DNA from: Folioceros fuciformis
Taxonomy: Eukaryota
Length of the DNA: 39,558 nucleotides
Reading direction: 5' to 3'
Assembly (NCBI GenBank): GCA_049999805.1
Contig: JBNGIO010006455.1
Span: 1-39,558, forward strand
Shown: positions 8,389-37,108 of the stretch, in pieces
Layout of the letters: the number at the start of each line of letters is the position of its first letter
Position numbering within the stretch: position 1 is the stretch's first letter
Translations under genes and position numbers: made by a program
Notes under the pieces: model-generated
What the model saw: the letters and a program-made list of their open reading frames with translations, nothing else
Told to the model about the DNA's origin: nothing
Database searches by the model: none

Positions 8389-11026
8389 TCAACTCACTTG
8401 TTCTCCAATCAGGTCAAGCCCCACAGCCAGGAAAGCTAGTCCTTGGAAAAGGAGGAAATAGAAGTGCACACCTTTAGCTGATAGTAAGCTCCTTGCTGAC
8501 GCAGTCAGCAGCAAAAATGATAAAGTGAGCTCCTTCCTGTACAGTCGGTTCGTCTTTTTCTTCAAAAAGGGCACTGGACTAGGTGCACCCTGCTGCTGTG
8601 ATTGCTTACCCATACCTTCCAGGTTCAATGCTGATGCCCCACGACGGTGGCCAGCCAACGATAACTCAGCATCCTCTTCTGTCTCCTTCTGGGCTATGGC
8701 CAGGAGGTCTGCCTCCGACGATCGTCCCATCTTCTTGGTGACAACCCACTCATAGGCACTACCGAGTTGGAAAAGTCCCGACACCATGGCATTGAACTTG
8801 GTAACAGACATGGTGTTCTCAAACAACAAGTAAGGAACGAGGAACGGAAAAGACTTCGGAGCAGGTAGAACATTCAGGAAGGACATCAGGGCAGGTATGT
8901 AGCACACCACCCACAGGGGAAGGTGAGCCTCAGGGACAAACATGGTCATGGGTAGAATGATGCAGAAAAGAGTGAACGAGTAGAAGGGAAGAATCAATTT
9001 CCTCAGGAGGAAGAAGAGGAAGATAAGATTGGCTTTCTTTGCAAGAGAAATCTGCGCCAATCACACGGAAACACAAAGAATCAGCAAACGTAACAGAACA
9101 ACCTAGTGACTGTGACACTATCAAAATAGAGCGCTGCTTTCCAATTCAAACTCCACCCACCTCTGATTTGATGATATCGGGCAGGCAGAGACGGAACAGC
9201 TGCATCGGACCAGAGTGCCATCGATGCTGCTGCTTTCTGTACGCCTCGTACGACTCTGGGAGTTCACAGATGCACTGCGCACAGAGGGACACAGGATCCA
9301 AAATAGTCAGGATCTACGAACCACAATTCACCTGCCAAAACGGCTTGACGAGGGTGATCACATGCAAGTGATGAGGGTGTTACCTTCACGTCATTCAGAA
9401 AAATAAACTTCCAACCCTTCAGGTGAGCTCGCACAGCGATATCCATGTCCTCCACAGTGGTCCTTTCCAGCCAACCGCCCGACTCTTCCAGAGCTTTGAT
9501 TCTCCAGACGCCTGCTGTTCCGTTGAAGCCGAAGAAGTTGAGAAATACCCCATTCACTTGCTGCTCCACTTCAAAATGGAATGACAAGTTGATATTCTGT
9601 AATCGTGTCAGCAAATTCTCGTCCCTGTTGATGAACGCCCACCGAGTCTGCACAAGGCCCAGCTCTGGATTGTCCTGCAGAAGACAAAAAAGTCAGAGAA
9701 TGCACAAGCTCAGTGTCTGGCCACTATCAGAACATCAAGGAGACAACCCTCCTCAGAAGCTGGTACTGAACATACAATGAAATGGGGAACAGTCCGCTTG
9801 AGGAAGTCAGGCTGAGGTTGGAAGTCAGCATCGAAAATGGCAACGTATTCATAAGCCTTGACGTAGTCGCACATCATTCCAGCTTTCAAGTTTCCAGCCT
9901 TGTAACCAGTTCGATTGCGCCGGTGCCTGTAAACAGCGTGCACGCCCTTGAGGGACCATTTCTGCACCTCCGCCTTGATGAGTTCTTGAGTGGACGGGTC
10001 ATCTGAATCGTCCAATACTTGGACAAGCATTTTAGACCTGGGCCACTCCATATTGCAGACTGCTGCCAGAGACTGCTGGTAGACCTGCGAAGTCAGGGAC
10101 ACAAGAAAACTGTCAGACCCACAGACGAAGCTACCACACCACATCCTTGTGAGCAGGACGCAGTTCATGGAGAGCACTGGGCTACCAAAGATCTGAAGGT
10201 CGTGCAGCACAAAACGACACAGCCGTGGTCCACAGGCAAGGAAGGACTAAACAGAAAAACCAAAGGCAGGGCCCCGAAGCAATCCATGGAAGCCTGTGCC
10301 TACCTCTCTCTCGTTGCACATTGGTATCTGAACAAGAACATGCGGGTAGGCGGCATCCGGATTCTCCACGTCATCCGGCGTGTCGAATGAAGCCACCTTA
10401 GGCACAGGAGCCACGCGCCTATACTTGATCCAGATACAGCCCAGGCAGAGCAGCAGCCTGTCCGCAGACTGGACGAGGAAAAGAATGATGCAAGCGTCCG
10501 CCAGGAGCTGCAGCGGAGGTGCTATGTAATTGGAGCGCAGAAAGATCCAGGACAGATAGATGACATGCGGCAGGCTCTGAACTTCCACCACCGTGGGCAT
10601 GTGAAGATGGGGCCGAGTGAAGTGCCAACCCTTGAAGTAAGCCAGTATCTCCACACCCAGCATGACGATAGAGAAGAACAAGAAAATCCTGATGCAGTGA
10701 TAGAGCCTTCCCTTGTGCGGCTTGTCCGACGGAGGCGGCACTCCTTCCTGAAAAATAAGGCGCTTCTTCACAGCAGCAAGCACGGTCCAGAGCCCCATAG
10801 CGAGCCAGGCGACGCAGCCCGCCGCCCGGTGGGCCTTGAGCATGAGCACCCAGGTGAGCTGCTTGGTATTCTTGTCCCGATTCTTGTCAGCCTCAAAGAC
10901 TCCAGCCTTGGGGCTCTGCAGCTCCAGCATGGACCAGTTAGGATTCTCCATCTTCACCACCACGGGCGTGCCTCTGTGCGCCTCCTTCGTCCCCAACCAC
11001 TCCCCTATATTAAAGCTAGGTGGCAT
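8389..11026 (-). CDS. CSLC: cellulose synthase-like C (GT2), xyloglucan beta-1,4-glucan backbone synthase, ~699 aa, 5 exons
   Basis: Exons 11026-10304, 10084-9776, 9674-9384, 9274-9161, 9051-8389; all introns GT-AG and phase 0. Motifs [70 protein letters not shown]. Confidence 0.96.
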
Positions 11027-12051
11027 TGTGACAGTTTCTCCTTATCAACCGCTCCCCCAAGCACAGTCGCAGAATCAGGGTGAGAGGAGGAGCTCCGCAA
11101 CCGAAACCGCTGCAGCCCGATCTCCTACGTGCATGCGGCAGCAGGCGCGGAGGGCGAGGCTGGCACGGCCAGGCGGCCCATCCCGAGCTTCCCGCACCGC
11201 ACCCAGGCCGTATCCGCGACAACAGGAAGTGGTGAGCAATCCGCGTCCGGGCTGGAGCATCCCCCGCCGTCCCGGATTGAACCCGAGGCCACGAAATGTG
11301 CACGCAATGCCGCCCCGGATCCGGCGAGCCCAGCAGGCGGTCAGCTTCCAGGAGCGGGGGCCCTCCTGGGCGCCATCGCCGCGGCAATGCCGGGAGCCTA
11401 AGGCGTCCCTCCGGAGGCGCACTCTCCAGGCAGGACCCGAGATGGGAGACGAGGGCAGCACAGGCACGGCAGAGGCGGAGTAAAGAAGGCTGGGTGCAGG
11501 GGAGGAGGCGGGCGGGAGGGACAGGGACTGCGAGGGACGGCGGGCGAGCAAGCAAGGAGGCAGAGCTTTCTGGCGCACCAACCGGGCCGGGCGTGGGAGA
11601 GACGAGGAGCAGGAGAGGAGGAGGAAGCAGGAGCGATGATGAGCGAAGAGGAGGGTGCAACAGCAGACAACAGCAACGGGCTACCAGTCGGCGTCCTGCC
11701 GAACGCAGCTCGCTGTGATGCCGGCCCCTTCCCACACCGCACCTCACCGCATCGCACTGCACTGCTCTGCTCGGCTCTGCTCGTCTCCACTGCTTCTGCA
11801 GCCGCGTTCAGCCTGGCTTCTCACTCCATAGCCCGCCAGCCTGCCACGCCCTGAAGACCCAGAGAGAGAGGAAATAGAGAGAGAGTGCAGAGAGCAGTGT
11901 GGGAACCTGGACCGGGCTGTGCCGGTCTCGGTGACAGCAAAGAAAGGAGAGCCGACGCCAGCTGGCTGCCCGACACTCTCCCATTGCTGCCCGGTTTGAA
12001 AGTTGGTTTGTCCCGTTGAGCTGTCTTTTACCGTGGTGCCGTGGCCATGGC

Positions 12052-17423: not shown

Positions 17424-18722
17424 TTAACGATGAGAAGCGACGTCACGGTCTAGAGGATTCGATGACTCGTTTCTGATCCGCTTCACTTTGTGGGAGCCCA
17501 GGCTGCGGTGTTGGAAACCCAATGCCTCCAACACCTGGTTGTCAGCGAAGTTGAAAGCACGCTCCATATGCTTCAAGCACCGCTCAATCGGGTAGTCTCC
17601 GTACTTCCCACACGGCTTGCAGCCAACAAAGTGCGTGACAAACGGCCATCTATGATCACCAAAACCTGGATGACTATCCGCCATCATCTCTTCGTACCTT
17701 TCCACCAGGATCTCCCAGTAACCATGCAGGTAGTAGGAGTTCTCTAAATAAACCTTGGGCGACCACTTCTCTTTCTGCGTGATCAATAAATAAATGAGAG
17801 CCGACTGGTCATCCGCCTCGAACTGAGGACGACCATCCAAAAACTTGCTCAGAACCTTTCCGGCCTCATCGCGTATAGCACCCTTGGGCCCCATGGGAGC
17901 CCAGGCGTCTAGCATATCCAAAGACCACTGGCAGTTCCGAAGTAGGAAGCTACCAGTATTCAGTCCTATCCAGCTCTTTGTCTTGTATACGAGGTCATCC
18001 CACCCGTGCAACACGAAGTTGTAGTCCGTGTAATTGTCCACCGGCAGATTGAACACCATGTCTGTGAAGAGGGCATCGCTGTCCATCCACCATATCCACT
18101 CGACCTCCGGATGTGTCAACATCAGCTTCCGCAATAGGGGCAGCTTAGACCAGTATCCGGCCATCTTGTGATCCAAGAAAGCCATGTTGTAGACGATTTC
18201 CATGTCGTGCAGGCGGCAGTAGTCGATCTTGTTCTTCAACGCCTTGAGAAGATAGTGATCGCCAATGGAATTTTCACACGGCTGGGGAGACGATCCAGAA
18301 ACCAACAAGACCCGCGGCTGCCCCTTCTTATTGAACGTCATACCCGGATTCTTCTCCAGCCAAGACTGGCGTTGCTCATTCCAATCAGATATCTGCGGGC
18401 CCAGGCTGTAAGGCAGCCCCGAACTGGCCGCCTCCTCCGCCTGCTCCTCCCAGTCCGTAGGATCCGAGAGGTCGATCTTGACCTCAGTCAGAGTGCGTAC
18501 CGGTTCCCGCACCAGAGCAACATCCTGTGCAGCAAATCCCGCCTCCTGAGTCTGATGGCTCTGGCTCAGCATCAGCGGCCCCCGTAGCACCATCACGGTC
18601 ATAAAACCCGCGAACAAAGTCAGGCACAGATTCTTGAACCCCTTCACAATACCCCTCCCCCGCGGACTGCGCATAAATCTGTTCACGCTCCATCCTCCTC
18701 GAGATGCCCTTAGCAGCGCCAT
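17424..18722 (-). CDS. XXT: xyloglucan 6-xylosyltransferase (GT34, XXT1/XXT2 type), single coding exon, ~432 aa
   Basis: First ATG at 18722 (the track's 18782 start is GTG); N-terminal TM LCLTLFAGFMTVMVLRG; motifs GDHYLLKALKNKIDYCRLH, WWMDSDALFTDM, LNTGSFLLRNCQWSLD, FEADDQSA, WPFVTHFVGCKPC, AFNFADNQ. Confidence 0.95.
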   Translation of the reverse strand: MALLRASRGGWSVNRFMRSPRGRGIVKGFKNLCLTLFAGFMTVMVLRGPLMLSQSHQTQEAGFAAQDVALVREPVRTLTEVKIDLSDPTDWEEQAEEAASSGLPYSLGPQISDWNEQRQSWLEKNPGMTFNKKGQPRVLLVSGSSPQPCENSIGDHYLLKALKNKIDYCRLHDMEIVYNMAFLDHKMAGYWSKLPLLRKLMLTHPEVEWIWWMDSDALFTDMVFNLPVDNYTDYNFVLHGWDDLVYKTKSWIGLNTGSFLLRNCQWSLDMLDAWAPMGPKGAIRDEAGKVLSKFLDGRPQFEADDQSALIYLLITQKEKWSPKVYLENSYYLHGYWEILVERYEEMMADSHPGFGDHRWPFVTHFVGCKPCGKYGDYPIERCLKHMERAFNFADNQVLEALGFQHRSLGSHKVKRIRNESSNPLDRDVASHR

Positions 18723-19366
18723 TCCGAGAGCGAGAAGAGCTCCGTCCGATGCCCTACCCCACCGAACGAGCCCGGAGTCCACAGATCAGCCAACGAACAG
18801 CTCAACTCAAGCACCGGAACCACACCACAGCCCGTCCCAGCCTCAAAACACATTAGCAAACTCCCCCGCAAGCCTACTGCCACAACCATCCGCAGGCATC
18901 CTCCGAAGACTTACGACAGCCATCGATCTTGCTCACCAGATGCTCAGGACCGCCCCCCGCCTGCAGCCTCAAGTCCCCCGTTCCCGCCGCCCTTGCACCG
19001 ACGGCAAGAGCGACAGCATTGCTACAAAGCAATGCCCCCGCGCCCGCAGATGAACCAAGGCCTCCAACCGGAGCCGGCCCAGCGATAGGCGTGAGCCCGA
19101 CCTCAGCAATTGCGATCCCGGACGATCCACCAACCGGCCTCACCCGCCGCCTGCCGTTGGGGAAGAGAGCGCCTCCGCGCGGCTGAGCGAGGAAGAGCTG
19201 GAGCCGTTGTGGCGGTGATAGGTTGCTGTCCTAGAGCTACCGCTGCAGTGTCGCCCTCGCTCGCCTTCGCCTTCTCGGTCGCCCTCTTGCTCTTGCTGGC
19301 TAGCTTTCACTCGATCTCGGACTCTGGAGCACAGCAGGCGGCGAGAATGGCTGGAGGAGAGAGAGG

Positions 19367-19404: not shown

Positions 19405-21009
19405 CACAACGTACTGTGTGTGTGAAGCTGATTCAAGTGTGTGCGTCGACTGCTTGTACATACATACAGTGTATGTACATTTGTACAGTACTGTGTGTTG
19501 TGGGAGGCGGGTTTCCGGTCTTTCGCATTCCTGTCATGAGCCCGCGACAGAGACCTCTCACACAACTGCTGTGCCGGGATTTTGCACAAGCGGGCAACTT
19601 GAGTGAATTCGAACTTCCCTATACATACGTGGCCCTCGTGATCGATCGCGACACAGAGACTCGATTCAAATATGCTTGCTTTGGCGCTCCGTCTGTCCTC
19701 TGCCCACTGCACTCCCAACACACGTCTCACTGAAATTGGCTTGGAATTTGCATCTAGCTGGAGTCATGACACGTATATTGTGGGTCTGGTGCGGAGAATG
19801 ATTTTTCAGGACTTCTGTGAGGCCAAATCATGGTGTTGTGTACCATGCCTTTCATCAGCCTCAACTGCATTACCCGAAGTGGAATTTAGGCAAAATTATT
19901 GCCAACTAATGCAACTGCCTTCTGGATATCTGTTGCTTGACGGCCACCGCATGAATGTGTAACGAACAGAAGAGTGACACGGGATCGGGACACGGAATCT
20001 TAAACTTCATATGAGATTGGGGCCCTGGGAGTTCAGACTAGTTGGACGGACTACTGGACGAGTTTACTACTTCTGGAGGAAGTTCAGGCTTCTCAACAAA
20101 CTGTGCAAAAGTATGAGAGAGTGTGACTTCATGTTCCGTGCATGGGCTGCACTTGGAGGATTCCCGATGCTTCGCTAGCGAAGAAGACGAGTGAGTGAAG
20201 CACATTCAGGAAGTGGTCGGTCTGCGACTGAAAGAGGATGCAGTCAGCTTGGCAGTACTTTCCCACTGAGAGCAACATGGACAGTAGAAGGGTTCAGTCC
20301 TGCAAGACATAGCATCATCCACGTACAGGGAGGCAGTAGTATATCTCCTGTGATCGATAGGAGCATACAATCCAGTTCCTGGTGCTCCCACCTGTTGCTC
20401 TGGAGCATCCTCTCGGTCACGAACGTTAACCCCGGGTGACGTGCAATTTCGTTCACCACCGTCTCACCTTCTCCGTCTCCTGTTAGCATCGTCCGATGTC
20501 AGAAAGATGTATTTCCGGGAAGGATCCATACCTTCCCTGGGGCTCACGACCTCAAGGTGCTATTCACTCTCATGAAGCCCGTTCCGTGAGCCAACGACTC
20601 TCACAACCCTGTTCCTCAGCTCTGGGGTTTTCGGGCCCTTCCTGGATCAAGCTCTCTTCCTGCATGGGATGTATGACACAGTCTTTCCTCTCTACGGGAT
20701 CATGATCTGCATCAAACGGGAAAAACACCACGACATATTATCAACAACTGCAGGACGCCCAACCCGATCGACAATCGTAGCACGCGCACAAGTGCTGGTT
20801 ATTCAGTACATACATGCGGGCATCAGAACCATGTAAAAGCATAGGCCGGCCTTACAACACGGAGGCACAACGGGTCCAGGCCCAGGAACGCTTAACTGCC
20901 GAGCCTTGACGGTTGGTTGCAGCAAAGGATGCATGTCCTCAACGGCGCTCTCGTCTCTCCTGGAGAGCGTGAAAAATGCACATCCCGTTCGTGACGCATG
21001 TAGGAAGCG

Positions 21010-24000
21010 ATGGGAGACTACGGCGAGGAATCCCGTGGACATTCCCGGGCCGGGTCTCGGGTGGTGACGACAGCGTGGAAGCCAGGGAGGCCTTTGCCTG
21101 CTTCTCGGCATTCCAGTGTCAACGACTGGCCTGCAGAGCGGGCGTCTGGATCGAGGGCCTGGCTGCCCGGCCTGGTGCCTCCAGGAGAACAGGGGGGTTC
21201 TCTGTCTGGCTCCCAGTACAGCATTCCTACGGTAGCAGGGTCCCAGGCCACCGATGACAGCAGCGTGGCGGTGCAGGAGGAGTCTCCTCCCCAAAGCTCG
21301 CAGGTTTTGGGTGATGTCGACCCTGAATGGGCTCCTCGTGCACCGCTGTTTCCTCGCCTGTCCATCAGTGGGGCGCCCTTGAAGCTCATTGATGCGATCT
21401 GGACAGGGGCCCAGGCGGAGGTTATGTCCTTTCTGCACCACCCATTTCTCGGGGCTGTTCTCACGCACAACGTCCCAACCGAGCTTCTGACGCAGTATCT
21501 GAATGAAGAGGCCTTCCTCTTCTCTGCAGCAACTATGTTGTGAGGCCGCTGACCTACTTTCTTTGTTGTGCTGCTTTCATTCAAGAGGTGTCGTAAAGAT
21601 GTCTGACATGAGCGTGCTGTTGCAACACATAGATCTCAACACCCGCTAGTGAGTGCTGCTTTGCTCAACGTGCCAAATTTTATCAACACCTTGAGAGTTG
21701 TGCTTTATGACTTGGTAATGCTCACCTCTTAAGGCAACAAGGCTCAGAGGGTGGTCGCATTTTCGCTTGCCGGATGCCGCATTTTCTCATGCTGGCCAGA
21801 GTTTGTAGACGAAGTTATGGCTGCAGCTCAGGGTTTGTGCATGTCTCAGACTCAAGACGGCTGGAATGGTATATTTGCCACTCTTGATGGATTTCAATCA
21901 CGTGACTTCAACAGCACAGTGGCGCAGCAGAAGCAATGTGGTCCTTCTTGCAACAAAAGTCGTCTTCCAATTACAACGTGGACGCCCTGGTTGCTTGGGT
22001 AGCCATTCTGCGCGTGAGGAGCCTTGTTGAAGCTGTCATTGGCAGGAGGATCCCCACGCAAGGAATAGGAAAGAGTCCATTTGTTGTGTGGATTAGCACT
22101 TATGGTGAAGAAGCGTTTCAGGTCAGTGTATGATCCAGTGTGTGGTGCTTCTGGCTTTGTACTCGTCGACACTCCTGTCATTCTTGGCTGAATGTGGACC
22201 AGCAAGTACAGGTCTGTGCTACGCTACTGGAGGAAGCCCTGGAATCTTGTTACCCACAAAGCCCTGACCAAGGAGAAATGCAACGTCTGCTGGATATCTT
22301 CAGGACAACTATCAGGCTTGACATCGAAATATTTTCAAACTTGTACTCTAGTGTTCCCAACTACACGGAGTATAAAATTGAACAGAATAGTCCGTGGAAC
22401 CCTTGTAATCTCCTCTTTGCCACCGACTATGATTGCACTTGTACAGTGAAGGATTCTTGTTACCTTCTAGTATGGGCCTCAGAGGCTGCAGGGCGAATCA
22501 ATGACGGCCGGCTGGTTCAGGCTCACCAGGCCATTTGCACGGATCATGATGTAAGTGTGCTGGACTGTCTGGCATCCATGCCCGATTTCAATTTTGACCC
22601 GGGCCCTGAGCAATTTATATCGGAGATAAGGTTTGAGCTGTTGCCCGGAATGGACCCTAGTCTTGAATCAATGGCCAGAGCGATTCTCGACCAGGATTAC
22701 ATGGATACAGAGGATATTCCTGCCATGCAACCTGTTGCCGGGTTTGCAGCCATCCGAGAGGCGCTCCTGTGGCTAGCACAGCTTGAAACTGACACAAATA
22801 AGGTAAGGCCAGCAAGATCCCAATTTGGAGCGTTGTTCAGGCCTCAAGTACATCATCTGACCCACAGTCTACAAAAACTGTGGGTTAGGTGACGTCTCGA
22901 ACTGAGCAAGATGACTAATGCATGTCTCATGTTACACAAGGTTGACAAAGCTGGTCGTCTTCTTTCTTTTGCAGAAAGTCATGGACCGTGGACTGTTGGT
23001 GGGCCTTACCAGACAGGCTATCAAGGCAGCGGGGAAGAAGGCTGCTATGCAGAACAACTGCCTCCAAGTACTCAAACGATTAACAAAATCTGGGTGCTCC
23101 ATCCATGTCATCTCCGCGAACTGGTCAAGGGATTTGATTCTGAGCGGACTTTCCTTTATCCCCGGTAGGAAGCTGCATCAAGGCGGCTTTACCCTCTTTC
23201 GTCGTGTCTCGTGTCGCTGTAATGCGGGGGTGGGCAACGAGACCTAATGTATGCTATATCGTGTCATGCAGAAGGCATGCTTTATGTTCACTCCAATGAT
23301 TTGGAGTACGAGGCATCTGGAACATCTAACGGGAAGTTCTCGAGTAGCGTTACAAACGCTTTTGATAAGGAGCACGTCTTGGAAGTGCTTCGAAGGATTG
23401 TGAATCAATTTGCTGGGGTTGAACAGCCTTCCTCGCATTTTCTCCCTGACGATCAGGGAAGGATGGTTGTATACCTGGGAGATGCTCAAACTGACCTGCT
23501 GGCCCTACTTGATGCGGACCTTGGCATAGTTATTGGCAAAAATCCTGCTCTGAGACACATGTTGAGTAAATACAGGATTCGGTTATTGCCACTCGTGGAG
23601 GCTTCAGCGCATATTTCAGTTTCAAGACTGTACAGTTCTCATCGCAGCTACAGGCAATCAGGAATCCTATTTGAAGCAAGTGGTTGGGAGGATGTTGAAG
23701 CCTGTCTCTTTGGGGATTGCACATTACAGGCCACTGACGATTTCAAGGCCTTCTGCTGTCCACCGGGGCAACGAGGTGTTCTTCACAGAGAGAGAACAGG
23801 GCAGCAAAACATGCTGTCCCAGTTCCGAAATTCTGTCTTGCAGACAAACGTTTTTGGATCTGACATTTCATCTCCAGCCCTTCAGCGCATGCCAAAGTAC
23901 CGCAACTCTCAGGAATTTACATATGGGGATCAGCCTTTTGGTCAGGAGCCTCGAAGATTTTCGTCTGATGAAGGGCTGCATATGACAGGGCAAGGCGGGA

Positions 24001-26000
24001 ATGGCCAAGGAGGTGAGTTTGGATCTTTCTCACATGGATCGCCGATGGGAGGGCAAGTTGAATTTTCTCTGGGAGCGCAGTCGAAATCTCTCATGCCCTT
24101 TCCCACGCATGAAGGTTCTGCTGAAGGAGGTCAGTCAGGATCCTTCTCTCAAGGATCTCTGATTGGAGGGCAAGGTGGATTTCCTTTGAGAGGCCAGCCC
24201 AAATCTCTCATGCCCTTTCCCAGACAAGAAGGTTCTGGCCAGTTAGGATCTTTCTCTCAAGGAACTCGCTTCCCTGGATACAATGTTTATTCAGGATCTC
24301 TCTCTCAAGGAACTCTCTTCTCCGGACACGAAGGTTATGGCGAGGGTGGGCAGTCACGATCTTCCTCTCAAGGAACGCCCTTTTCCGGACATGCAGGTTA
24401 TGTTGAGGGAGGATCTCTCACTCAGGGAATGCCCTTTCCCGGACACGCAGGTTATGGTGAGGGAGCTCAGTCAGGATCCTTCTCTCACGGAATGGCCTTT
24501 CCTAGACACGTTGGTCAGGATGAGGGAGGTCGAACTGCATCATTTTCTCAAGAAATGTCCTTCCCTCGCCAGGAAGGTCAGGATGCATCTTTCTCCAGCG
24601 AGTTTCCGTTTCCTGGAGAAGTTGGTCAGGACGAGGGAGGTCGAACTGCATCATTTTCTCAAGGAATGCCTTTCCCTCGCCAGGAAGGTCAGGGTGCGTC
24701 GTTCTCCAGCGAGTTCCCGTTTCCCAAACAAGGTGCGTATGGTGACGGAGGTCGTGGTGGACCTTTCTCCGATGGTTTCCCCTTTCTCGAACAAACTGGT
24801 TACGATAATGAGGGTCAGGGTGGATCGTCGTCACAGGGGATAATGCCCTTTGGTGCTCAAGGAGCTGATGGCCTGGACGGTCCTACTGGATCCTTCTCGA
24901 CGAGAGTGCCTGTTGTTGAAGAAGGTGACCTTGATCAGAGAGGAGGGTCACTCTCTCAGGGAATGCCACCGTTTAGTGGGTTCGAAGGGCCACGTTCCTC
25001 ACGCAGGCTTCCTTTCAGTCCAAGATTTTCCTTCACTATAGGATCGCAAGGGACTCCAGTTGCTAAGAAACAGTCCTTCAGCCAAGCCCCCGCGTTGGCG
25101 CCCATGCCAAAAAACATGTGGATGTCGGCAGATCTACAGCCAGGTGGGAACCAAGGAGATGTACGCTTGGAGACCGTGAAGAGGGATCTCTCCTTTACTG
25201 ATACATCCATGGGGCCTCCGTTCCCATCGCTTGGAGCCCCCGACGGCTCAGTTAGTCAGTCGGGAAGGATGAGCACATCGCCGAAAACAAGCACGAGCAC
25301 TCCTCCCAAGCCATCCTTCGGTCAAGGTGAGTGGTCGAGAGACAGAACGCCACCAAAAGGTAGACCTCTCACTCCAACGTTGTTACCTTTCCATCAAGGA
25401 GCTCAAGGATTGGAGATGAAGGGCACGGACTTCCCAAGGATGGGCTCACCTCCTACCTTATCAAACAGTAAAGATCCTTTCGAGGGCTTCGACATGTCCA
25501 GGCGAGGCTCTCCTCCCCAGAGCATGCCCTTCACTAGTCAGACAAATCCTGGAAATCTCGATGACGGCTTCCCATCGTTTCCTAGAATGAGCACACCTCC
25601 CAAGACAAGGCAATCCAGCTCGGGACCTCCTGGACTTGGTGACGGAGAGCTGAGAGGTATTTCCTTCAGTCAGGCATTCCATGACGATGGATCTCCATCG
25701 TTTCCCAGAATGGGCACTCCTCCCAGGACAAGACAATCCAGTCAGGGACTTCCTGGAGTTGGTGACGGAGTTGTGGGCGGTATACGTCTGAAGGGTTCCT
25801 ACAGTCAATTACCTCTACGGGTCTCTCAAACAGAGTCACCTACTGCGTTGCCCTTCTCACCACCACCGCCTCTCAAGGCGATGAACCGACCTCTGAAGGC
25901 CATGCCCCTGGCCATGATGCCCATGCCCCAGAACACGACCGGAAGTACTCCAAATCCTCTGGGTGGCTTTCCCCAAGGTTTTCAAGGAGAGGACGAATGA
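21010..26000 (+). CDS. divergent TenA-HAD fusion (TH2-like thiamin monophosphate phosphatase family) with a long low-complexity C-terminal extension
   Basis: Exon 1 21010-21539 (LIDAIW...HHPFLGAVLTHNV..ELLTQYL); one or two small exons in 21540-21927 unresolved; then 21928-22121 (PFVVWISTYGEEAFQ), 22212-22802 (FATDYDCTCTVKDS, HAD motif I), 22975-23164 (HVISANWSRDLI) and 23272-26000 (VHSNDL, FDK, YLGDAQTDLLALLDADLGIVIG, LFEASGWEDV, then the tail). Domain order matches my recollection of Arabidopsis TH2. Confidence 0.85.
24010..24980 (+). repeat. coding imperfect tandem repeats (consensus ~G-S-F-S-Q-G-x-P-F-P-x-x-x-G), ~15 units
   Basis: Visible in protein and DNA; clearest 111-bp duplication at ~24511-24621 vs ~24622-24732. 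Confidence 0.9.
25560..25770 (+). repeat. 123-bp-period coding duplication (DDGxPSFPRMxTPPxTRQSSxGxPGxGDG x2)
   Basis: Two aligned copies starting at ~25560 and ~25683. Confidence 0.85.
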
Positions 26001-26541
26001 TGGAATCATTGAATAATTTGTAGAGAGCAACGAGCAAGGTGAGATCCTGGCAAACAACACTCGTAGTCTCTAATTTCAACCCTCCGTCTCTGATGTATGT
26101 CTGTCCTACAACTCATAGGGACAGAAACGATCGAACCTTCAGGGCAGTTCTGAGGACTGACAAACCAGTTCTTTGAGTGGTTGCACAGCGTTGCATTCTC
26201 ACTAACTCTAACACCACCTCATCGTGCATCAAAAATTGTCAGTTCCCTCCGAGGACTGTCTATCGCATTATCACAAACTGACCTCCATTCCATCCTGGAT
26301 GGAACTTAACAAACACGCATCCATGAAAGAAACCCCAATTCCCTATCTTCTGCTCGTGTCCCGTCTTTTGCTCCCTTCAGATCCCTGCATCTTCCCCCAT
26401 CTTGTATACCAACCAAGACAACGTAAGTAGCCTCCTTAGTCTTTTTCTATCAACCAGGAAGAGCAAGTAGCGCAACTAAAACTTAGCATGGATTCATCAT
26501 TAGCGGAGCTTGTTGTTACGGGATACTTGAAGACTTTATCG

Positions 26542-29500
26542 AAAAAAAAAAAGATGGAAGTTCCATCTACCCCGTGGAGAGGGAACAACCCGCAATGGGG
26601 AAATGCCAAGAATGGGGCCTAACCCCGTCGTCCATCTAGCCTGTAACTCCCTATCACTCTTAAGATGTCACATTCTGGTATAAGGTATGGCCTACTTATC
26701 ACAGTGGCCGTTGAAGCCGCATCCGCCGTGCTTGATGTTGTTTGAAGAATCACGTTTGCCAAGGCCTTTTGTGACGCAATCGAAACCCGTTGCTGGAAAA
26801 ATGCCACCAGGTTGGATAGGGAATGCCCAATGTTGCTTCTACTGACGTGATGGGCCTTCGCGCATGTCTTCAAAAACCTGGAAAAATGCTTACCCATGGC
26901 CCTATGCGTTTCAATGGCAAGGGGGATGAACAAGTGACCCTACTACATAGACCTGTACTTGCAAGTCTTCCTTGTCGTGCTTCCTTTTGCCGCCCAAACC
27001 GGGGGGTTGATAAAGACATGCTCACTGATGGTTGTTCGAGTGGGGTCTGTGACCACCACAACTGCTACAGAAACCTGGTACCCCTTGTACAATGAGGCAG
27101 ATGCTATATAGCAAGGTATATGGGCGCTCCTTGTAGGGGAAGAAGCCACCCTCTTTGGCCAAAGAAAACATAACGTCCCTTACTACATTATGGGTGGCGA
27201 TGCGCTGCCTGCCGATAGGGCAATACGCAAGGTGGCTCTTGGGATCGTCGAGGGGGATCCTACAGCTATAAGAAGAGAGAGACCAGGCCAACGACTGGAC
27301 CAAGCTAAGGCGGAACCTCATCACGGTAGAGAAAGAAGTTGGTGCGATTTGGAAAGCTTGGATGCATGGACGGGCCAACAGCCAAGAGCCAGAACCCTTC
27401 CCCGAACAAGATTGAAGGCATGTCCGGGCCTGCTTGTCAATAGAGGAATCTATCATGAGGGCCTGTAGCTCTTGCCCATAATGCTTTTCCATGAGGGTGG
27501 TCTAAAGCCCCCTCATACCCCCACAAAGGAAGGAGGAACCGTGCGGATGAGGTACTCGGGGCGTGTGCAAAGCATGTGGAGGGGATATTGTAGGTCACCT
27601 TTGGGTCCCCAAGCTGATGAAGGTCCTCAATGTGTGCCAAATCCTCCATCAAAGCTGCATCCACCAATTCGTAGATGAAGTTGAGGGGGCCAACAGGGAT
27701 CCCTAGGATGCGGATTCCCAACGGAGAATTGATGTTCCCCTCCGAAAATTGTAGAGATGGAGTAATACCAGATGGAGACTACATCTTACACTTAGAAATC
27801 TTGACTTTTAGGCCCAACCATAAGAGCTCTATTGAGAAAAACTCAAAGGCTTGCTTAACCTTATCCCTTGGACCCAAGAGATGGGTGTCATCGGCCACTG
27901 ATGGGAAGAGACAACCCCCTACCGCAGAAGCGGTAATTGAAAGGGCTCTAAAGTGAGCCATAGCAAAGAGAGCCCCTCATAGGGGATCCCCCTAGCGCGT
28001 ACTTGTTGCCGAGTCGAGCACTGACACCTCCTCCACTGTGGGCCCGTGTTGAAAGTAGAGATTAGACGGAGCACCATAGAAGGAACGGACAAAGAGGATA
28101 AGAGACTCCAAACGACTGCCAGCAACCTTCAGCTCATTCAAAATAGCCACCCTAGAGACGGTGTTGAAGGCATTCTTCACATCAACTTGCAAGACAACCC
28201 AATCTGGATGCAGGTCCAAGATTGCTATAACCCGAAGACCACTGCCTCACAACCCCTCGAGGTAGCAATCCCGAATTGGTGGGGGCTGAAGTGGGCCTGA
28301 AGCTGCTCTCTGAGTTGGAGAGTAATGCTGCGGCTAATGAGCCGCAAGAACGCCTTGCCCACCGCAATGGGGCGCACTCCGGGGTGGGTTTCTCCAAAGC
28401 CAGCAACCTGTCGGCACCCAAGACCATAGCAATCCAAGGGGGAGTCTCACCCCACGCCATAGCAACCGCCAAGGAAAAAAGCTCAGAGAAGCTAGTAGAA
28501 GGGTCCTCCAAAGCAAAATAGTTCCGGAGGTGGTCATAGACCGTCCCGGATAAGCCACTGGAAGAAAGTCTTGGTGCGGTGACAAGAGCTCGACCGTATA
28601 CAACCCGATCAAGGCAAAAAGGCTCCTTGGGCACAAACTGCAGAACCTCCTGAGGGATGGGATCACCTGGGCCTGGATGCAAAGCACGGAGGGCGGCAAT
28701 GGTCTCCTCCGAGGGCGATACCACCGACTCCGGCCGAAGGGCCCTAGCGGCTTTAGCAAACTCCCCTGCTCAACCTAGTAAGAGACACCTCTTGAGACTC
28801 GCCTTCACGGATCCTAATGGACCTAGTCCAACTTGATGGACTCCAACCTTGATTTCGTAGCGCAGCCGGCCTCCACTTGTAAAACCTCCTTGTCCCCCTT
28901 CCGGAACCGACGAAGGCGGGAGGCCACTTCCCTATGACCAGAAAGGCCGCCCCTGGAACGACGAAGGCAACACCTGGGAAGAAAGAGGAACAATGTCCAT
29001 GCTAACTTGTCTCGAGGGTCCGAAGCAAGGCGCTCCAATGGCAACTTGTATGTGAGTCGAACATCGTCATGCAAACACCTAGGGAGACGTCGAAACAAAC
29101 GTGGCCCCGGAAGACGGGTCTCATAAAGGGCTTGAAGATGGGGAGCCTGCGCCTACAGCTACAACCAAGATTCCTACGAAGGAGCAAGGGGCCCATCCGA
29201 AAGAGAAGTTGAAGGAGTAGCAGCAATGGAAGAAGCACCCCTGACATGTAGCTCCCAAAGGGTCCGATTAAAGCCCTTGTGTACTTTAACCAAGTGACAC
29301 CTGATCCCCATAACCCCTTTGAACAAAGGGTTGCATGAGGGACACGGGGTATCCTTGGCTGGCGTGGAAGAATGAGATGCAATAAGTAAATAGAATAGAT
29401 TGCCGTAGAGAGACCAACAGTAAACACCTTGCCGGCTCCAACCTACATGCATAATTCCGGCTTCCAACCCCGAATAACAAAACGAAAAAATATTGTGGAA

Positions 29501-32114: not shown

Positions 32115-32560
32115 TCCTCCTGCAGTCATCACCAGCTCAGGATATTAAGTACGGAGAGACCTCCCCAACCCATCTCTCCACCTACATCTCTGAAGTTCTT
32201 GCCTCGACCTTTCAAGGTTGTCCTGGCCATGATGCGAATGCCCAAGAATATGGCCACAAACTAAGTGCCCCGGACCCTCTGGTTGGCTTTCCTGGGATCT
32301 CAAGTTGAGGACGAATGATGGAGTCGTGTTTGTGTGATGTGTGCACAACGTGAGATCCCAGTAAACCGAAATTTTCCCTTGTCAGTTGAGACGTATTTAT
32401 TTCTCCACCTCGGGGTCGAGAACATGTCTTTCCTACAACTCATAACAAAAAAAACGATCGGACGTTCTGGGAAGTTCCGACAACTAACAAGCCCATTCTA
32501 ATCAGAGTCGTAACAAATCGTTCCATTCTCAGTAACTCAACACCATCTCATCGTTCACGA
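32115..32560 (+). pseudogene. decayed duplicate of the 3' end and 3' UTR of the TH2-like gene (copy of ~25800-26230)
   Basis: PTSLKFLPRPFKVVLAMMRMPKNM vs PPPLKAMNRPLKAMPLAMMPMPQN; the same GAGGACGAATGATGGA stop context (32307 vs 25989); shared UTR blocks TCCTACAACTCATA, AAACGATCG, CATTCTCA.TAACTC, ACACCA.CTCATCGT; stops and frameshifts present. Confidence 0.8.
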
Positions 32561-32749: not shown

Positions 32750-34677
32750 TCATCTTGTTACCTTGTAAGACTGCAGCAAATGCAAACGAATGCACCTGCG
32801 TTAGTGTTGAGTGCCAGCTAGTTGAGAAACCAAGTAGCGTGGAAAAACAAATCGAGACCGACCTTCACTTTTGCCAAAAGATCCTTTGCGTGCTTGTCAT
32901 TCTGGAAATGGTCTCTCACGGGCTGAAGTACCCGACAAAATATTAGAATCTCGTAATGTCAAACAAGCATACAGGTTCAGGGACTTTGATACGACACCTG
33001 AAGAATATCGTTGAGTGCCTTGGCAAGCGCCGGTTTTACATCGCCAGGATGCAAAAGGCCAGCTTCATAATCATTTTTCATCTCTTCAATGGTTTTGTAG
33101 GTCCTGGAGACGGTGCAAGGACACTGTTCAGCATGTGCCCAAAGTTATAGAACTAATTCACAACAGAAAGGATGGGGACGAGAAAGAAACCTACTTGTTA
33201 CCACCATAAGCTTCAGGACGCACCACAGAAAATGCACCAAACCATGGGATAACAATGTACTGAATGTACTCCAGGCAGGGATTTCCCTCGAAAACACTTG
33301 GGGGGCAGTAAGCTTTCTTGATTTTTGCGTTGACCTCGTCCTGTCAACCATTTCACAGTTTCAGAGGGTCGGCAACAACTCATAACAATATCTGATCGGT
33401 TTTGCTCCACTGGAACGACGACAAGCAGACAGTCCATCGAACTTCGTACCACTGTGTCTTCCATGAATATGGCAGAGTTGGGATCACTTTTTGACATTTT
33501 CTCTTGTCCTTGGAGTAAGCCAGACAACATATCTAAGAAACCAATTAAGTCCACGGACCAACCTGCGGGAAAAGCTGTCAACTAAGTGAAACACAAGACT
33601 CAGGAGTGAGGATACGATGTGAAAGGATGATGGGTTTAAATTTCTTTTTGATGAGGTCGCAGTACTCCCGAGCAAGGACATTCACTTTGCGCTGGTCTAC
33701 GCCAAGCTGACAAATGTCTGCCTGGAGGAACAAGAAACACACAACACTGGGCAAGATGTCAAACATGTAGGGTCAGCAAGCGAAAGACAGACACAAAAGG
33801 CGACTAACCTGAAGAAAGAAGATATCAGCACATTGCATACAAGGGTACATGATCTGTGCACCAGACAGGCTGTCTTGGTCGCTCCTCCCCATAATTTGAG
33901 AACATCTGGGCGTACATGGCGTTGTAGAACACCTCTTGAGGTCGCAATCGACAAGGAATCTCAACATCAGATGCACAGATAGCCTGAAGATACCTCGTAA
34001 GACGGTCCAATGAGTTCTTTCGAGCTATATCCATAACCAGTGGCCAGTAGGTTGTGCTTGAATTGATTTCATCCGAAGACCACAGGAACTTTACCCTTTC
34101 AAGATTCATTCCAACTGCTTTCCAAACTTCAATAAAGTACTGCCCAGTTATCTTGATTTTGTTTAGATCTCCTCCCAACTTGTTGTTTAGGAACGCGTAA
34201 TAATCAGCAATCCAAAATTTGAAGATGCAGCCTGCTTTCGTCAACTTGTTGACATTCAAGGCTTTCATCACTCCCTGTTCTTCACAAAACAAACAGCCAT
34301 CTTGTCACATGCTGATTTTCCAACTAAAATGCAACCATCATCACCTCCGACTCAGCAAACAAAACACCATGCTCCAAGCACCTGCGCTATGTGCATCCTG
34401 CCAGAAGGCTCAAAGCCATCGTAACAGATGGGCTCCTTCTTCATTTCCAGAAGCTTCAAGAGCTCCTCGTCCTTGATGCATTCCTCTCCCACGCTCCGCA
34501 CCAAGTCATACTTCTCTTGCAAGGTCAACCTGGACAAAGCAGCTGGGATCACACTCCCATCTCAACACACGCAAGCATCAAGCGCGCAAAAATGGAGGAT
34601 CTATCCTCGTACTCAGGTCGAGGACTTGAAGATTCCAGCGTCAAGTTCCCCACGGGATGCTCCAACGTATCCGCCAT
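32750..34677 (-). CDS. TyrRS: tyrosine--tRNA ligase, cytosolic type, ~370 aa, 10 exons
   Basis: Exons 34677-34613, 34529-34382, 34274-33994, 33905-33809, 33721-33616, 33532-33450, 33340-33195, 33103-32998, 32922-32863, 32770-32750; all GT-AG and phase-consistent. Motifs YDGFEPSGRMHIAQ, YPCMQCADIF, QLGVDQRKVN, KMSKS, LHPGDVKPAL; ends SYKVTR. Confidence 0.95.
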
Positions 34678-35171
34678 GAGTGCACTCAAGCAAGCTGAGA
34701 AACGGAGCCCTACATACAGCCCAAGGAATGCATGAGCCGACTACTACTCGTCTTGAGACCTCCTAAATGAGGCAATCTTAAACAGAACAGGGAGGAGATC
34801 TACCTGTGTATCAACGTGTTAAACTATGTCTTATCTCGCTGAGAAATGTCGATCGCCTCCCTGATCCGCGATCAAAGAGCGTCTTTGAACGATAGCCACA
34901 ACAACAACGAGTCCAGTAGGGTGGGAGAATCACCATGGATTCTTACTTATTTACTTATTTTACTTATTTAAGTGTTTGATCATTAACTTGCGGGATCAGG
35001 TGAATATTTAATAGCAAAAATATTTTACTGAAAACCAAATATCACATAAATACGAGAAAAGACCTGTGGATATGCTATCGGACAGTACAATTCAACATTT
35101 TTCGTCGCTGTCGGATAACTAGTGTTCTTAAACCCTGATTCTGCCGGAGAAACAGAATCGAATCCCATGCC
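34678..35171. promoter_or_regulatory. probable bidirectional promoter (494 bp between start codons)
   Basis: Divergent ATGs at 34677 (-) and 35172 (+); AT-rich core with TTACTTAT repeats at ~34943-34970. Confidence 0.55.
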
Positions 35172-36160
35172 ATGGCGATGGCGAGAACTCTGGTAGGTAG
35201 GGCAGGGATAGTGGCTGCCCCGATGCCATCAGGTCGCACATTGTGTTTCCTCCCGTCCTTGCACATTTGTTCTTTACCAGGTCAACTCGCCTCCAACTCC
35301 CCGTCCCTCCGCTCCACCCCAGTCTTCATTCATAGCTTTTCCAGGTCCATCCTCCCATCTGCTGCTGTGTTCTTCGCCAGATCCTCGTCCGTATCTGCCG
35401 AGCAGCAGACATCTGACAGCGAAGGAGCTCCTGCTTCTCCTGCTGCTATTCCTGCGGAGGAGGCGGTGCCGGAGCTGAGTGCTTTGGATATTAGAGTGGG
35501 CAAGATTCTCAAGGCATGGAAGCATCCATCGGCGGACTCCCTGTATGTGGAGGAGGTAGATGTAGGAGAGGAGACCGGGCCCCGCACCATTTGCAGCGGG
35601 CTGGTGAAGTACATTCCCGAGGAGGAATTGCAGGTCCGTTTCGTGTTTGCAGTTGATGCTCGCATGGGGTTCTTCGACACTCTTTTGATTAGTGGTCCCG
35701 CAAACTTGGCGCAGGGTAGGTCGGTCATAGTCCTGGCAAACTTGAAGGCACGCAACATGCGTGGCACGAAATCGGAGGGCATGTTGATGGCTGCATCAGA
35801 CGCTGCGCATGAGAATGTGGAACTGCTGACTCCTCCGGAAGGCGCAGTGCCAGGGGAGCGTGCGTGGTTTGGTTCTGAAGAAGATGCAAACCAGTCTGCA
35901 GCAGCCACCCCGAATCAGGCAAGCAGGCTGGTCTCTTTGTCGTCCATGTGCCTGGAGGCATTTCCCACCCTCGCTACCCCGGTCGCGTGACAAATGTGTC
36001 TGCTTGCTGGTTGCAGCTGCAAAAGAAGAAGATTTGGGAGACAATCCAACCTCTTCTTAGCACCACAGACGAGTGTGTAGCCACATTCAGGGACAAGCCT
36101 CTACGGGTGTCCTCGGGCCTTGTGACGTGCAAGTCGTTGAAGGGCGCCAATGTGTCCTGA
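35172..36160 (+). CDS. tRNA-binding OB-fold protein (EMAP-II/Arc1p-C/Trbp111-like) with a probable organellar transit peptide, ~269 aa, 3 exons
   Basis: Exons 35172-35633, 35715-35918 and 36017-36160 (second intron GC-AG). Motifs LDIRVGKILKAWKHPSADSLYVEEVDVGE, RTICSGLVKY, LANLKARNMRGTKSEGMLMAAS, VELLTPPEGAVPGER, KKKIWETIQP. Ser/Arg/Ala-rich, acid-poor N-terminus. Confidence 0.9.
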
Positions 36161-36760
36161 CCTGTCCAGGGTTTGCTCTTCTTCGCAGTGGGGTCATCCA
36201 CATTCACTTCTCCAGATCTCACAGCATAGCGAAGTATGTTTTGCTGCCCAGAGTTCATGGAGATGGGTTTTCTTTTGTCCATAGGAAGTGGGCTGAAAGA
36301 GAGCTCTCCATCCCTTGATGCGCGGAAGCTCGTTGCTTCCATTGTCTTCTCAAGGCCCTTCTGAATCACGCGGAAGGGCTTTTCCTCCCGCTAACAGTAC
36401 TGTACAGCAATGTCCTCAGGACGTTTTGTCAAGCACGCTAGAATCCAAAATTGTGCCCACAGATTGCTGTCCAATTCCAGGGTTGTTGACCGTCAGAGGT
36501 GGCAGGCGTTCCCGCAGAGACGCCGACGAGGAATGCGTCCAACGAAAACAAACCCGCATACGTTTTAAGGCCGGGGCAGGCATCCAGCCAGACTAGCCCG
36601 GCAAAGGGTAAACCAAGTAAAGCGCAACCCTACTCCTCCATAGTGGTGTTGAGAAGTGTGAAGCCAAACCTGGGCCTTTCGACGGCCAGGTACTGTGCAC
36701 ATCTGGATAGTTGTGCGGAGTGAGGAAGCGGAATAGAAAGTGTGTGCTGCAGCCAGCAGC

Positions 36761-37108
36761 ATGCCGACGCTCAACCTGTCCACCAACGTGCCGCTGGACG
36801 GAGTGGCGGTGTCAGACGTGCTCAAGGATGCCAGCAAGACTGTGGCGCGCATCATCGGCAAGCCCGAGTCCTATGTCATGGTGGTGCTCAAGGGTTCTGT
36901 GCCCATCTCCTTCGGCGGCACTGAGGGGCCCGCTGCCTACGGCGAGGTGGTATCAATCGGCGGCCTCTCCCCGGACGTGAACAAGCGGCTCAGCAAGGCT
37001 GTGGCGGAGCTGCTCGAGTCTAAGCTATCTGTGCCTCCCAACCGCTTCTACATCAAGTTTGTAGACGTAGAGAGGACTGACTTCGGGTGGAACGGCTCTA
37101 CGTTCTGA
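36761..37108 (+). CDS. MDL: macrophage migration inhibitory factor / D-dopachrome tautomerase-like protein, 115 aa, intronless
   Basis: MPTLNLSTNVPLD with catalytic Pro2; GKPESYVMV, FGGTEGPAAYGEVVSIGGL, RFYIKF, GWNGSTF. Confidence 0.95.
   Translation: MPTLNLSTNVPLDGVAVSDVLKDASKTVARIIGKPESYVMVVLKGSVPISFGGTEGPAAYGEVVSIGGLSPDVNKRLSKAVAELLESKLSVPPNRFYIKFVDVERTDFGWNGSTF

Follow-up and report, generated by a model that had tools for sequence, protein, structure and literature searches.

The question raised by this locus is whether a phosphatase domain related to plant TH2 and the long, repeat-rich reading frame that follows it form a single protein, and what such a protein might do. The locus lies on contig JBNGIO010006455.1 of the Folioceros fuciformis assembly GCA_049999805.1, of which positions 1 to 39,558 of the forward strand (39,558 nucleotides, hereafter the window) were analysed. 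On the + strand of the window we delineated a six-exon gene, which extends from an ATG at 21010, preceded directly by an in-frame TAG at 21001, to a TGA at 25998-26000. Its predicted product of ~1445-1470 amino acids (aa) comprises, in this order, an S/P/G-rich N-terminal extension, a TenA-like domain, a HAD phosphatase domain and a tail of 760 residues. Exon 1 (21010..21539) encodes the extension of ~125 aa and the start of the TenA-like domain (HHPF...YLNEEAF). Exon 2 (21633..21714, 82 nt), placed by transcript joints and by alignment to related proteins, encodes a TenA-like helix. Exon 3 begins at 21850 or 21915, ends at 22121 and includes the position of the TenA catalytic Cys, which is Ile here. 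Exon 4 (22203..22802) holds the end of the TenA-like domain, HAD motif I (DYDCT, 22425-22439) and the helical cap region, while exon 5 (22975..23164) contributes the Ser of motif II (ISANW; Ser at 23113-23115). Exon 6 opens with the remainder of the HAD domain (23272..23717), including the motif III Lys at 23367-23369, motif IV GDxxxD at 23478-23495 and the terminal WEDVEACLFG, and then runs on into the tail.

Evidence for transcription was drawn from four sequencing runs compared with positions 19500-27500, of which only two, X1 and X2, from two different studies, yielded contigs. Neither is recorded as RNA; we took both as RNA because both skip GT..AG introns. X2 represents a relative whose sequence is 5-14% different (86-95% identical). 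The joint between exons 1 and 2 is seen in an X1 contig (20971-21539) whose loose end matches 21633 onward, and an X2 joint leaves exon 2 at 21714 (GT..AG). X1 also provides the joints 22121/22203 and 22802/22975, both GT..AG; the intron 22803-22974 is spliced in both runs and the intron 23165-23271 in X2. One X1 contig enters this last intron up to 23220 (23165-23220), possibly by intron retention or as pre-mRNA. The transition from HAD domain to tail at 23717 is bridged by X1 contig 23306-24551 (0 differences) and by X2 contig 23500-24278, and no splice joint occurs between 23272 and 24100 in the contigs of either run. A hidden intron after the HAD domain could make use of GT-type donors at 24013 and 25327, yet no GT..AG joint was found in the contigs of exon 6. 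X1 tiles on to 25920, whereas X2 reaches 26055. An earlier, sequence-based preliminary description of the locus had called for proof that 23272-26000 is one translated exon; the contigs support a single exon across the HAD-tail junction, but none of them extends from the HAD domain to the stop codon.

The N-terminal extension (21010-21384, +) is conserved as protein in X2, with mostly synonymous changes: over 21019-21387, 17 of 27 differences fall at third codon positions and 16 of the 25 changed codons are synonymous. It is acidic and S/P/G-rich, by eye unlike an organelle targeting peptide, and was not seen in the Selaginella and Diphasiastrum orthologue models, the two that were compared. 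Directly upstream, 20035-21009 (+ or -) is transcribed in X1 and X2 and carries indels that shift the frame; read on the + strand, it has 19 ATGs. This stretch may represent an extended 5' leader or else a non-coding transcript of its own.

Which enzyme the gene encodes was assessed by comparison with canonical TH2, described in passages of PMC8331165 and PMC7868968 as converting thiamin monophosphate (TMP) to thiamin and as consisting of a targeting peptide, a TenA and a HAD domain. The last HAD exon is 44-56% identical to six proteins of Marchantia, Riccia, Calypogeia, Selaginella and Diphasiastrum (6/889 candidates) and 35-44% identical to canonical plant TH2. In a tree of 23 rows, from which fragments and poorly aligned rows were left out, all 9 of the 9 rows of this group, here called clade B and including a second Marchantia gene and a paralogue from the same genome, fell together at 100/100, apart from the canonical TH2 of the same species and set off from it by a long stem. 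A second tree that included a fern fragment placed the window protein in clade B at 97/96. Selaginella, Diphasiastrum, Calypogeia and Riccia each possess a separate canonical TH2 beside their clade-B member. The members are Marchantia BBN16705.1 and BBN12940.1, Selaginella XP_024537418.1, Diphasiastrum KAJ7559038.1, Calypogeia CAM6128663.1, Riccia KAL2613172.1 and the Adiantum fragment MCO5609498.1. They thus cover liverworts, lycophytes and a fern, a range that is a lower bound, since a clade-B profile search returned only 2 known members. The window protein shares the clade-B signatures SPW.P.N..F.TD[YF]D.TCT, SANWSRD, AFDKE and W..VEACL. Judged by its sequence, the protein is a TH2-type phosphatase, yet one outside canonical TH2 and outside TenA_C, and we read clade B as an old clade of TH2 paralogues in seed-free plants. 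Hence, the TH2-like phosphatase of the preliminary description holds as far as the TenA-HAD order and the motifs go but not as canonical TH2, and its neofunctionalised phosphatase is not a TH2 turned to a new role by the tail, but a member of an old, divergent clade whose other members have no such tail. Databases label clade-B proteins TH2 or hypothetical, and no paper on clade B or on TH2 in hornworts was found in a literature search outside of which lay subscription journals and supplementary tables that may mention these genes; clade B is apparently undescribed.

HAD phosphatases are characterised by motif I DxDxT, a Ser/Thr in motif II, a Lys in motif III and GDxxxD in motif IV. All four are intact in the window protein, where DYDCT, ISANW, FDKE and YLGDAQTD align with canonical TH2. 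The TenA site, by contrast, is altered. Where canonical TH2 has PCMRLY, the window protein reads AILRVR and thus lacks the Cys, as do all five further clade-B rows whose alignment is reliable at this point. The Glu of the A.LE..FF motif, which we take to be the equivalent of Glu205, has likewise changed, to Asp in the window protein and to Gln in its lycophyte orthologues. TenA_C is defined in a passage of PMC10277260 by its active-site Cys (B. subtilis Cys135), the very residue that the window protein lacks, which places it outside that class. The model of the Diphasiastrum orthologue (predicted template modelling score 0.80) shows a TenA fold plus a HAD domain. Foldseek matched it to cytosolic 5'-nucleotidase III and SerB (phosphoserine phosphatase) with E about 3e-4 and, by fold, to B. 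subtilis TenA (E 1.4e-6); PF03070 matched the orthologue with 22.6 bits. Other searches with the window protein gave little: Pfam returned no match for four single window frames, a word-indexed homologue search with the 908-aa exon scored 0/8000 candidates, probably crowded out by the repeats, and a PDB sequence search gave only weak motif-IV matches to P-type ATPases. The ESM Atlas, queried with exon 4, gave a best score of 0.93 to a streptophyte cluster. From these features, the HAD domain is quite probably an active phosphatase, presumably a Mg-dependent phosphomonoesterase for a small metabolite. The substrate would most likely be TMP or a related phosphorylated pyrimidine or nucleotide; TMP itself we name only tentatively. 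The TenA domain presumably no longer uses the Cys mechanism and may serve as a structural or ligand-binding module.

The tail begins where the preliminary description had placed the end of the HAD domain. The frame 23223-26000 (+) is open for 925 codons, and after EACLFGD, which ends at 23717, exactly 760 codons follow up to the TGA. The other five frames across the tail contain 15-39 stops, and 2000 first-order Markov simulations of the tail gave 21 stops on average and 9 at minimum, and in none of them did an open stretch exceed 325 codons. A non-repetitive, Q/R/S/F/G-rich linker of ~100 aa (23718..24020) leads into the repeat block (24021..25010), in which we recovered the roughly 15 GSFSQG.PFP-like units noted earlier. 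Fifteen units of 16-39 aa, starting at 24021-24945, match [GARP][SP][FLS][ST][QHSDT][GER], 12 of them also the stricter [GA]S[FLS][ST][QHS][GE], and the consensus is [GA]-S-F-S-Q-G-x-P-F-P followed by a G/E/Q spacer. Start-to-start spacings in 13 direct-repeat families are multiples of 3 in 44 of 44 cases, which are not independent of one another. The expected Pro-rich block, 25278..26000 including the stop, is also present, the last 240 aa being 17.5% Pro.

Overall, the tail consists of 16.4% G, 13.2% S, 11.3% P, 8.0% Q and 7.6% F, with low charge; G/S/Q/P make up 54% of the repeat block, which is net slightly acidic. Aromatic residues, nearly all Phe, account for 9.2% of the residues in the whole tail and for 11.6% in the repeat block. 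Their spacing is more even than in shuffled sequences (z = -2.25; 6/1000 shuffles as low), a modest effect that agrees with the regular Phe spacing described before. SF and PF are the enriched pairs of the repeat block. FG dipeptides are depleted (5 vs 9.5 expected in the 760-aa tail, 2 vs 7.2 in the repeat block), RG is not enriched, RGG is scarce, Tyr occurs 10 times in total and Q+N reach at most 16 per 80 residues (20%). Index values along the tail are mostly disorder-like, and AlphaFold2 run from the single sequence gave no structure for the repeat block (mean predicted local distance difference test score 41), which is weak evidence for disorder. The tail combines probable disorder with dispersed aromatics, the two features that a sticker-and-spacer sequence calls for. 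A query of the ESM Atlas with the tail reached a best feature score of 0.76, a lead only, which was not used. The Pro-rich block contains four T-P-P-[KR] sites (25299, 25347, 25593 and 25716), which we take to fit the consensus of proline-directed kinases; R-x-x-S-P-P occurs at two more places (Ser at 25446 and at 25509). [ST]P.[KR] occurs 4 times there vs 0.8 expected (p = 0.004), in copies that stem partly from duplication and are not independent. An SQ cluster for ATM/ATR was considered and rejected: the 19 SQ vs 11.4 expected belong to the repeat unit, and the excess loses significance when blocks are taken one by one.

Whether the tail is maintained as protein was evaluated from its indels, its substitutions and its lack of stops. 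Net tail indels in X2 measure 9, 111, 126 and 171 nt, 4/4 multiples of 3, compared to 1/5 upstream of the ATG (Fisher p about 0.04, computed by hand, with adjacent gaps merged alike in both regions); gains and losses of repeat units inherit the unit length, so that this test is not fully independent. In four pairs of duplicated tail blocks, 31 of 62 differences lie at third positions (p = 0.005), the proportions of synonymous and nonsynonymous differences are 0.28 and 0.13 (pS, pN), and the ratio of nonsynonymous to synonymous rates (dN/dS) is 0.40 in the gene frame vs 1.32 and 1.20 in the shifted frames. A neutral simulation over half the X1-X2 distance, with its rate estimated from exon 1, predicts about 7 stops in the tail; 2 of 1000 simulations left none, and the actual number is 0. 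Together these patterns show that the tail is under protein-level selection. The frame conservation on which the preliminary description depended is therefore seen in the relative, and neither an early transcript end or splice after the HAD domain nor a separate tail gene was observed.

Its architecture had also been called unfamiliar, and a search of 1.84 billion representative proteins bears this out: among 117 matches, 0 had their best stretch in the repeat block, and the two that run past residue 160 align to Ala/Ser linkers of algal proteins. The other clade-B proteins end 1-66 residues beyond the conserved HAD end. A donor for the tail elsewhere in the genome was found neither by DNA nor by protein search, except for a decayed local copy of the 3' end (32118..32557, +; last ~65 codons plus ~230 nt of 3' untranslated region; 73-76% identical). 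As far as these searches extend, the tail is restricted to this lineage. The simplest origin would be an extension of the last exon and subsequent in-frame tandem duplication within the lineage. The decayed copy has acquired +5/-2 frameshifting indels and an in-frame TAA within about 100 nt, and thus serves as a local control for the keeping of the frame in the tail.

On balance, we lean towards a real six-exon gene for an active small-molecule phosphatase whose lineage-specific disordered tail controls its location or assembly. The tail would then have no part in catalysis and act in targeting and regulation. Weak multivalent contacts could come from its evenly spaced Phe units, in the form of self-association, condensate partitioning or repeated docking of a partner, and proline-directed kinases might switch these contacts at the T-P-P-[KR] sites. 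Condensate partitioning of the tail is plausible from its composition; evenly spaced aromatics favour dynamic condensates according to a passage of PMC8638251. Several observations weigh against the favoured reading. The only acceptor observed for exon 3 (21849, in X2) is out of frame in the assembly and leads to a stop at codon 255. No single contig spans the distance from HAD domain to stop; the overlap between the X1 pieces is just 29 nt, and the contigs do not show the strand. The long X1 pieces are identical to the window, and X1 may come from the very species or material that was assembled. An aromatic content of 9.2% and an evenness of z about -2 are ordinary for a low-complexity region, and the motif enrichments are inflated by duplication. 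Moreover, divergence from X2 is about two times higher in the tail than in the enzyme (11.6% vs 5.0-6.8% nucleotide differences) and the number of repeat units differs from that of the assembly organism; constraint on the tail is therefore moderate.

Among the alternatives, a condensate scaffold in the strong sense, in which the tail alone phase-separates via Phe stickers and the resulting body concentrates the phosphatase and other enzymes, draws on the G/S/Q/P-rich, aromatic composition of the repeat block, its low charge, the even aromatic spacing, the lack of predicted structure and the valency given by 15 similar units. Its stickers, however, are Phe rather than Tyr or Arg, the FG, RG and Q+N values run the other way, and such a composition predicts possible phase separation, not cellular use, so that we regard this scaffold as unlikely. 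It is distinctly unlikely, in our view, that the tail is a tolerated expansion, translated with no specific job and with selection purging only stops, frameshifts and aggregation-prone changes because the enzyme to which it is joined is needed. All other members of clade B, among them the two paralogues of this genome, do manage with 1-66 residues after the HAD domain, the tail evolves fast with gain and loss of units, and algal TH2-TH1 fusions show that the TH2-type C-terminus accepts large additions. With a dispensable tail, though, an early stop in the last exon should be harmless, which sits badly with about 7 expected and 0 present, and selection on the amino acids themselves is indicated by the dN/dS of 0.40 and by the conserved pattern xSFSQG-x-PF.

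The exon 3 problem leads to another account, in which this accession carries a defective gene or a young pseudogene: a transcript spliced to 21850 would give a 254-aa product from the main ATG and leave the HAD-tail frame as a fresh relic or open to re-initiation only. The assembly segment in question, 21850-21914, is 65 nt long and shifts the frame. X2 uses the 21849 acceptor, with no compensating indel listed there, a clade-B profile scores 153 bits with the segment (one break) vs 146 bits without it, and four of five orthologues have a loop of 39-46 aa at this point. On the other hand, the acceptor AG at 21914 is in frame and yields an intact protein of 1445 aa whose loop, at 24 aa without the segment, is close to the 26 aa of Selaginella, and the X2 joint into 21850 carries the flag 'between: not known'. 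An error of one base in the assembly would account for the data equally well, and the coding sequence that follows, about 3.9 kb, has no further lesion. A broken gene thus appears highly improbable, and for the entry into exon 3 an assembly error of one base, an alternative acceptor and a recent frameshift are all possible. Next to negligible is the chance that the tail is a separate gene, an untranslated repeat in frame by coincidence or mainly a tail-only transcript. The X2 tail contigs do have a depth of 51 vs 4-7 for the HAD contigs, and 28 in-frame ATGs lie within the tail; but there is neither a stop nor a splice joint between HAD domain and tail, the contigs of both runs bridge the junction, and X1 depth is flat at 5.4-6.8. 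Contig depth cannot rank genes here, and the high-depth X2 contig extends 1.6 kb past the gene into sequence whose start best matches a stretch beside a neighbouring tRNA-synthetase gene, so that the depth may derive from that neighbour.

The genome provides further context for the favoured reading of a tailed, active phosphatase. A separate canonical TH2/PALE1, whose presence the preliminary description had raised as a question, was not found in the assembly with PF03070, five protein queries and three degenerate patterns, the pattern matches being clade-B genes or unrelated; an argument from a spare copy thus finds no support here. The same kind of search did recover TH1 (C3697:5970-7567) and a stand-alone TenA gene (C5428:65876-66695), the latter presumably a plant TENA_E. 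TenA_E proteins form a separate TenA clade without the Cys; the window protein has no Cys there either, but the TENA_E-like gene of this genome is a different one. The assembly is fragmented (7240 contigs) and may be incomplete; these results suggest a loss of canonical TH2 in the lineage or an assembly gap. Two clade-B paralogues are present in the same genome, at C6373:576,200-577,500 and on C6626 plus C6627, two contigs with ends in common that seem to hold the parts of a single gene. Both end ~23 residues after the HAD motif and, from their sequences, appear to be HAD-only, lacking a TenA domain. A possible exon upstream of the C6373 gene reads like a plastid transit peptide. The Adiantum nelumboides fragment MCO5609498.1 groups with these two paralogues (100/97, 143 columns) and not with the window gene, for which an old duplication, a transfer between hornwort and fern or contamination is possible. 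A lineage-specific duplication that gave rise to the window gene and both paralogues was also considered, and is weakened by this grouping. An LCIB-family gene is present in the assembly, and a passage of PMC8075897 reports LCIB in hornworts and in no other land plants, which by itself points to a hornwort as the probable source.

Downstream of the gene, broken non-long-terminal-repeat (non-LTR) retrotransposon-like sequence at ~26500-29400 (-), with reverse-transcriptase-like fragments in several frames and presumably of CRE type, lies between the gene and the decayed copy. The decayed copy itself adjoins the 3' end of a convergent gene of the Tyr/Trp-tRNA-synthetase family (stop near 32750). 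Past 26055, the X2 contig runs into sequence that best matches the decayed copy, and in the X2 relative the phosphatase and tRNA-synthetase genes may abut with overlapping 3' ends. Elsewhere, the window contains a Ty1/copia-type retrotransposon with an open integrase and RVT_2 frame (1-2865, +), a gene that we take to be a CSLC-like glucan synthase (8389-11041, -), a GT34 glycosyltransferase (17424-18785, -), a tRNA-binding-domain protein (35139-36100, +) and a MIF-family gene (36737-37108, +).

Clade B represents a second TH2-like clade in seed-free plants with intact phosphatase motifs and an altered TenA site, and its substrate matters for vitamin B1 metabolism. Canonical TH2 is an essential gene in rice according to a passage of PMC7868968; since the present assembly seems to be without it, clade B may have taken over. 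A far-reaching version, in which hornworts lost canonical TH2, clade-B enzymes dephosphorylate TMP and one of them became a kinase-switched, condensate-forming vitamin B1 enzyme via its Phe-repeat tail, we consider improbable; if true, a metabolic enzyme would have gained a phase-separating region de novo in one land-plant lineage. The tail is, in our reading, a lineage-restricted disordered region of 760 residues that arose by in-frame duplication under selection, and the tail-less paralogues in the same genome are natural controls for the role of such a newly gained region. Eukaryotic enzymes with a long low-complexity extension are not unusual. What is new here is a repeat tail that is under selection, restricted to one lineage and attached to an enzyme from an apparently undescribed clade of TH2 paralogues, for now a solid curiosity rather than a new system.

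Compared to known systems, the protein resembles plant TH2/PALE1 (At5g32470) in its TenA fold followed by a HAD domain with motifs I-IV, but falls into a separate clade, has lost the TenA Cys and carries 760 residues after the HAD domain vs 3-22 in TH2. With the other clade-B proteins it shares the sequence signatures and the absent TenA Cys, whereas these end shortly after the HAD domain. Chlorophyte TH2-TH1 fusions such as Chlamydomonas incerta KAG2445538.1 likewise bear a C-terminal addition of 410-580 aa on a TH2-type HAD domain, which, however, consists of folded HMP-P kinase and TMP synthase and not of repeats. In all, seven proteins, one from Chlamydomonas incerta among them, fuse a TH2-type HAD domain, some also with TenA, to HMP-P kinase and TMP synthase domains and thus unite several thiamin steps in one chain. 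FG-nucleoporin repeats contain many FG, FxFG or GLFG motifs, and Q/N prion-like domains are strongly enriched in Q/N and Tyr over 60-80 residues. The tail has a disordered, G/S/Q/P-rich chain with dispersed aromatics in common with FG-nucleoporins and with prion-like domains of the FUS/hnRNPA1 type, but differs from them in its depleted FG, enriched SF and PF and scarce Tyr and RGG, with no sequence match, so that the analogy drawn in the preliminary description does not carry over. The closest working analogy, though not one of homology, is Pah1/lipin, in which a HAD-like catalytic core is likewise combined with large disordered regions, albeit in an unrelated HAD subfamily with a lipid substrate and no tandem repeats. 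According to PMC10797186, several kinases phosphorylate these disordered regions, which govern where the enzyme is located and how active it is.

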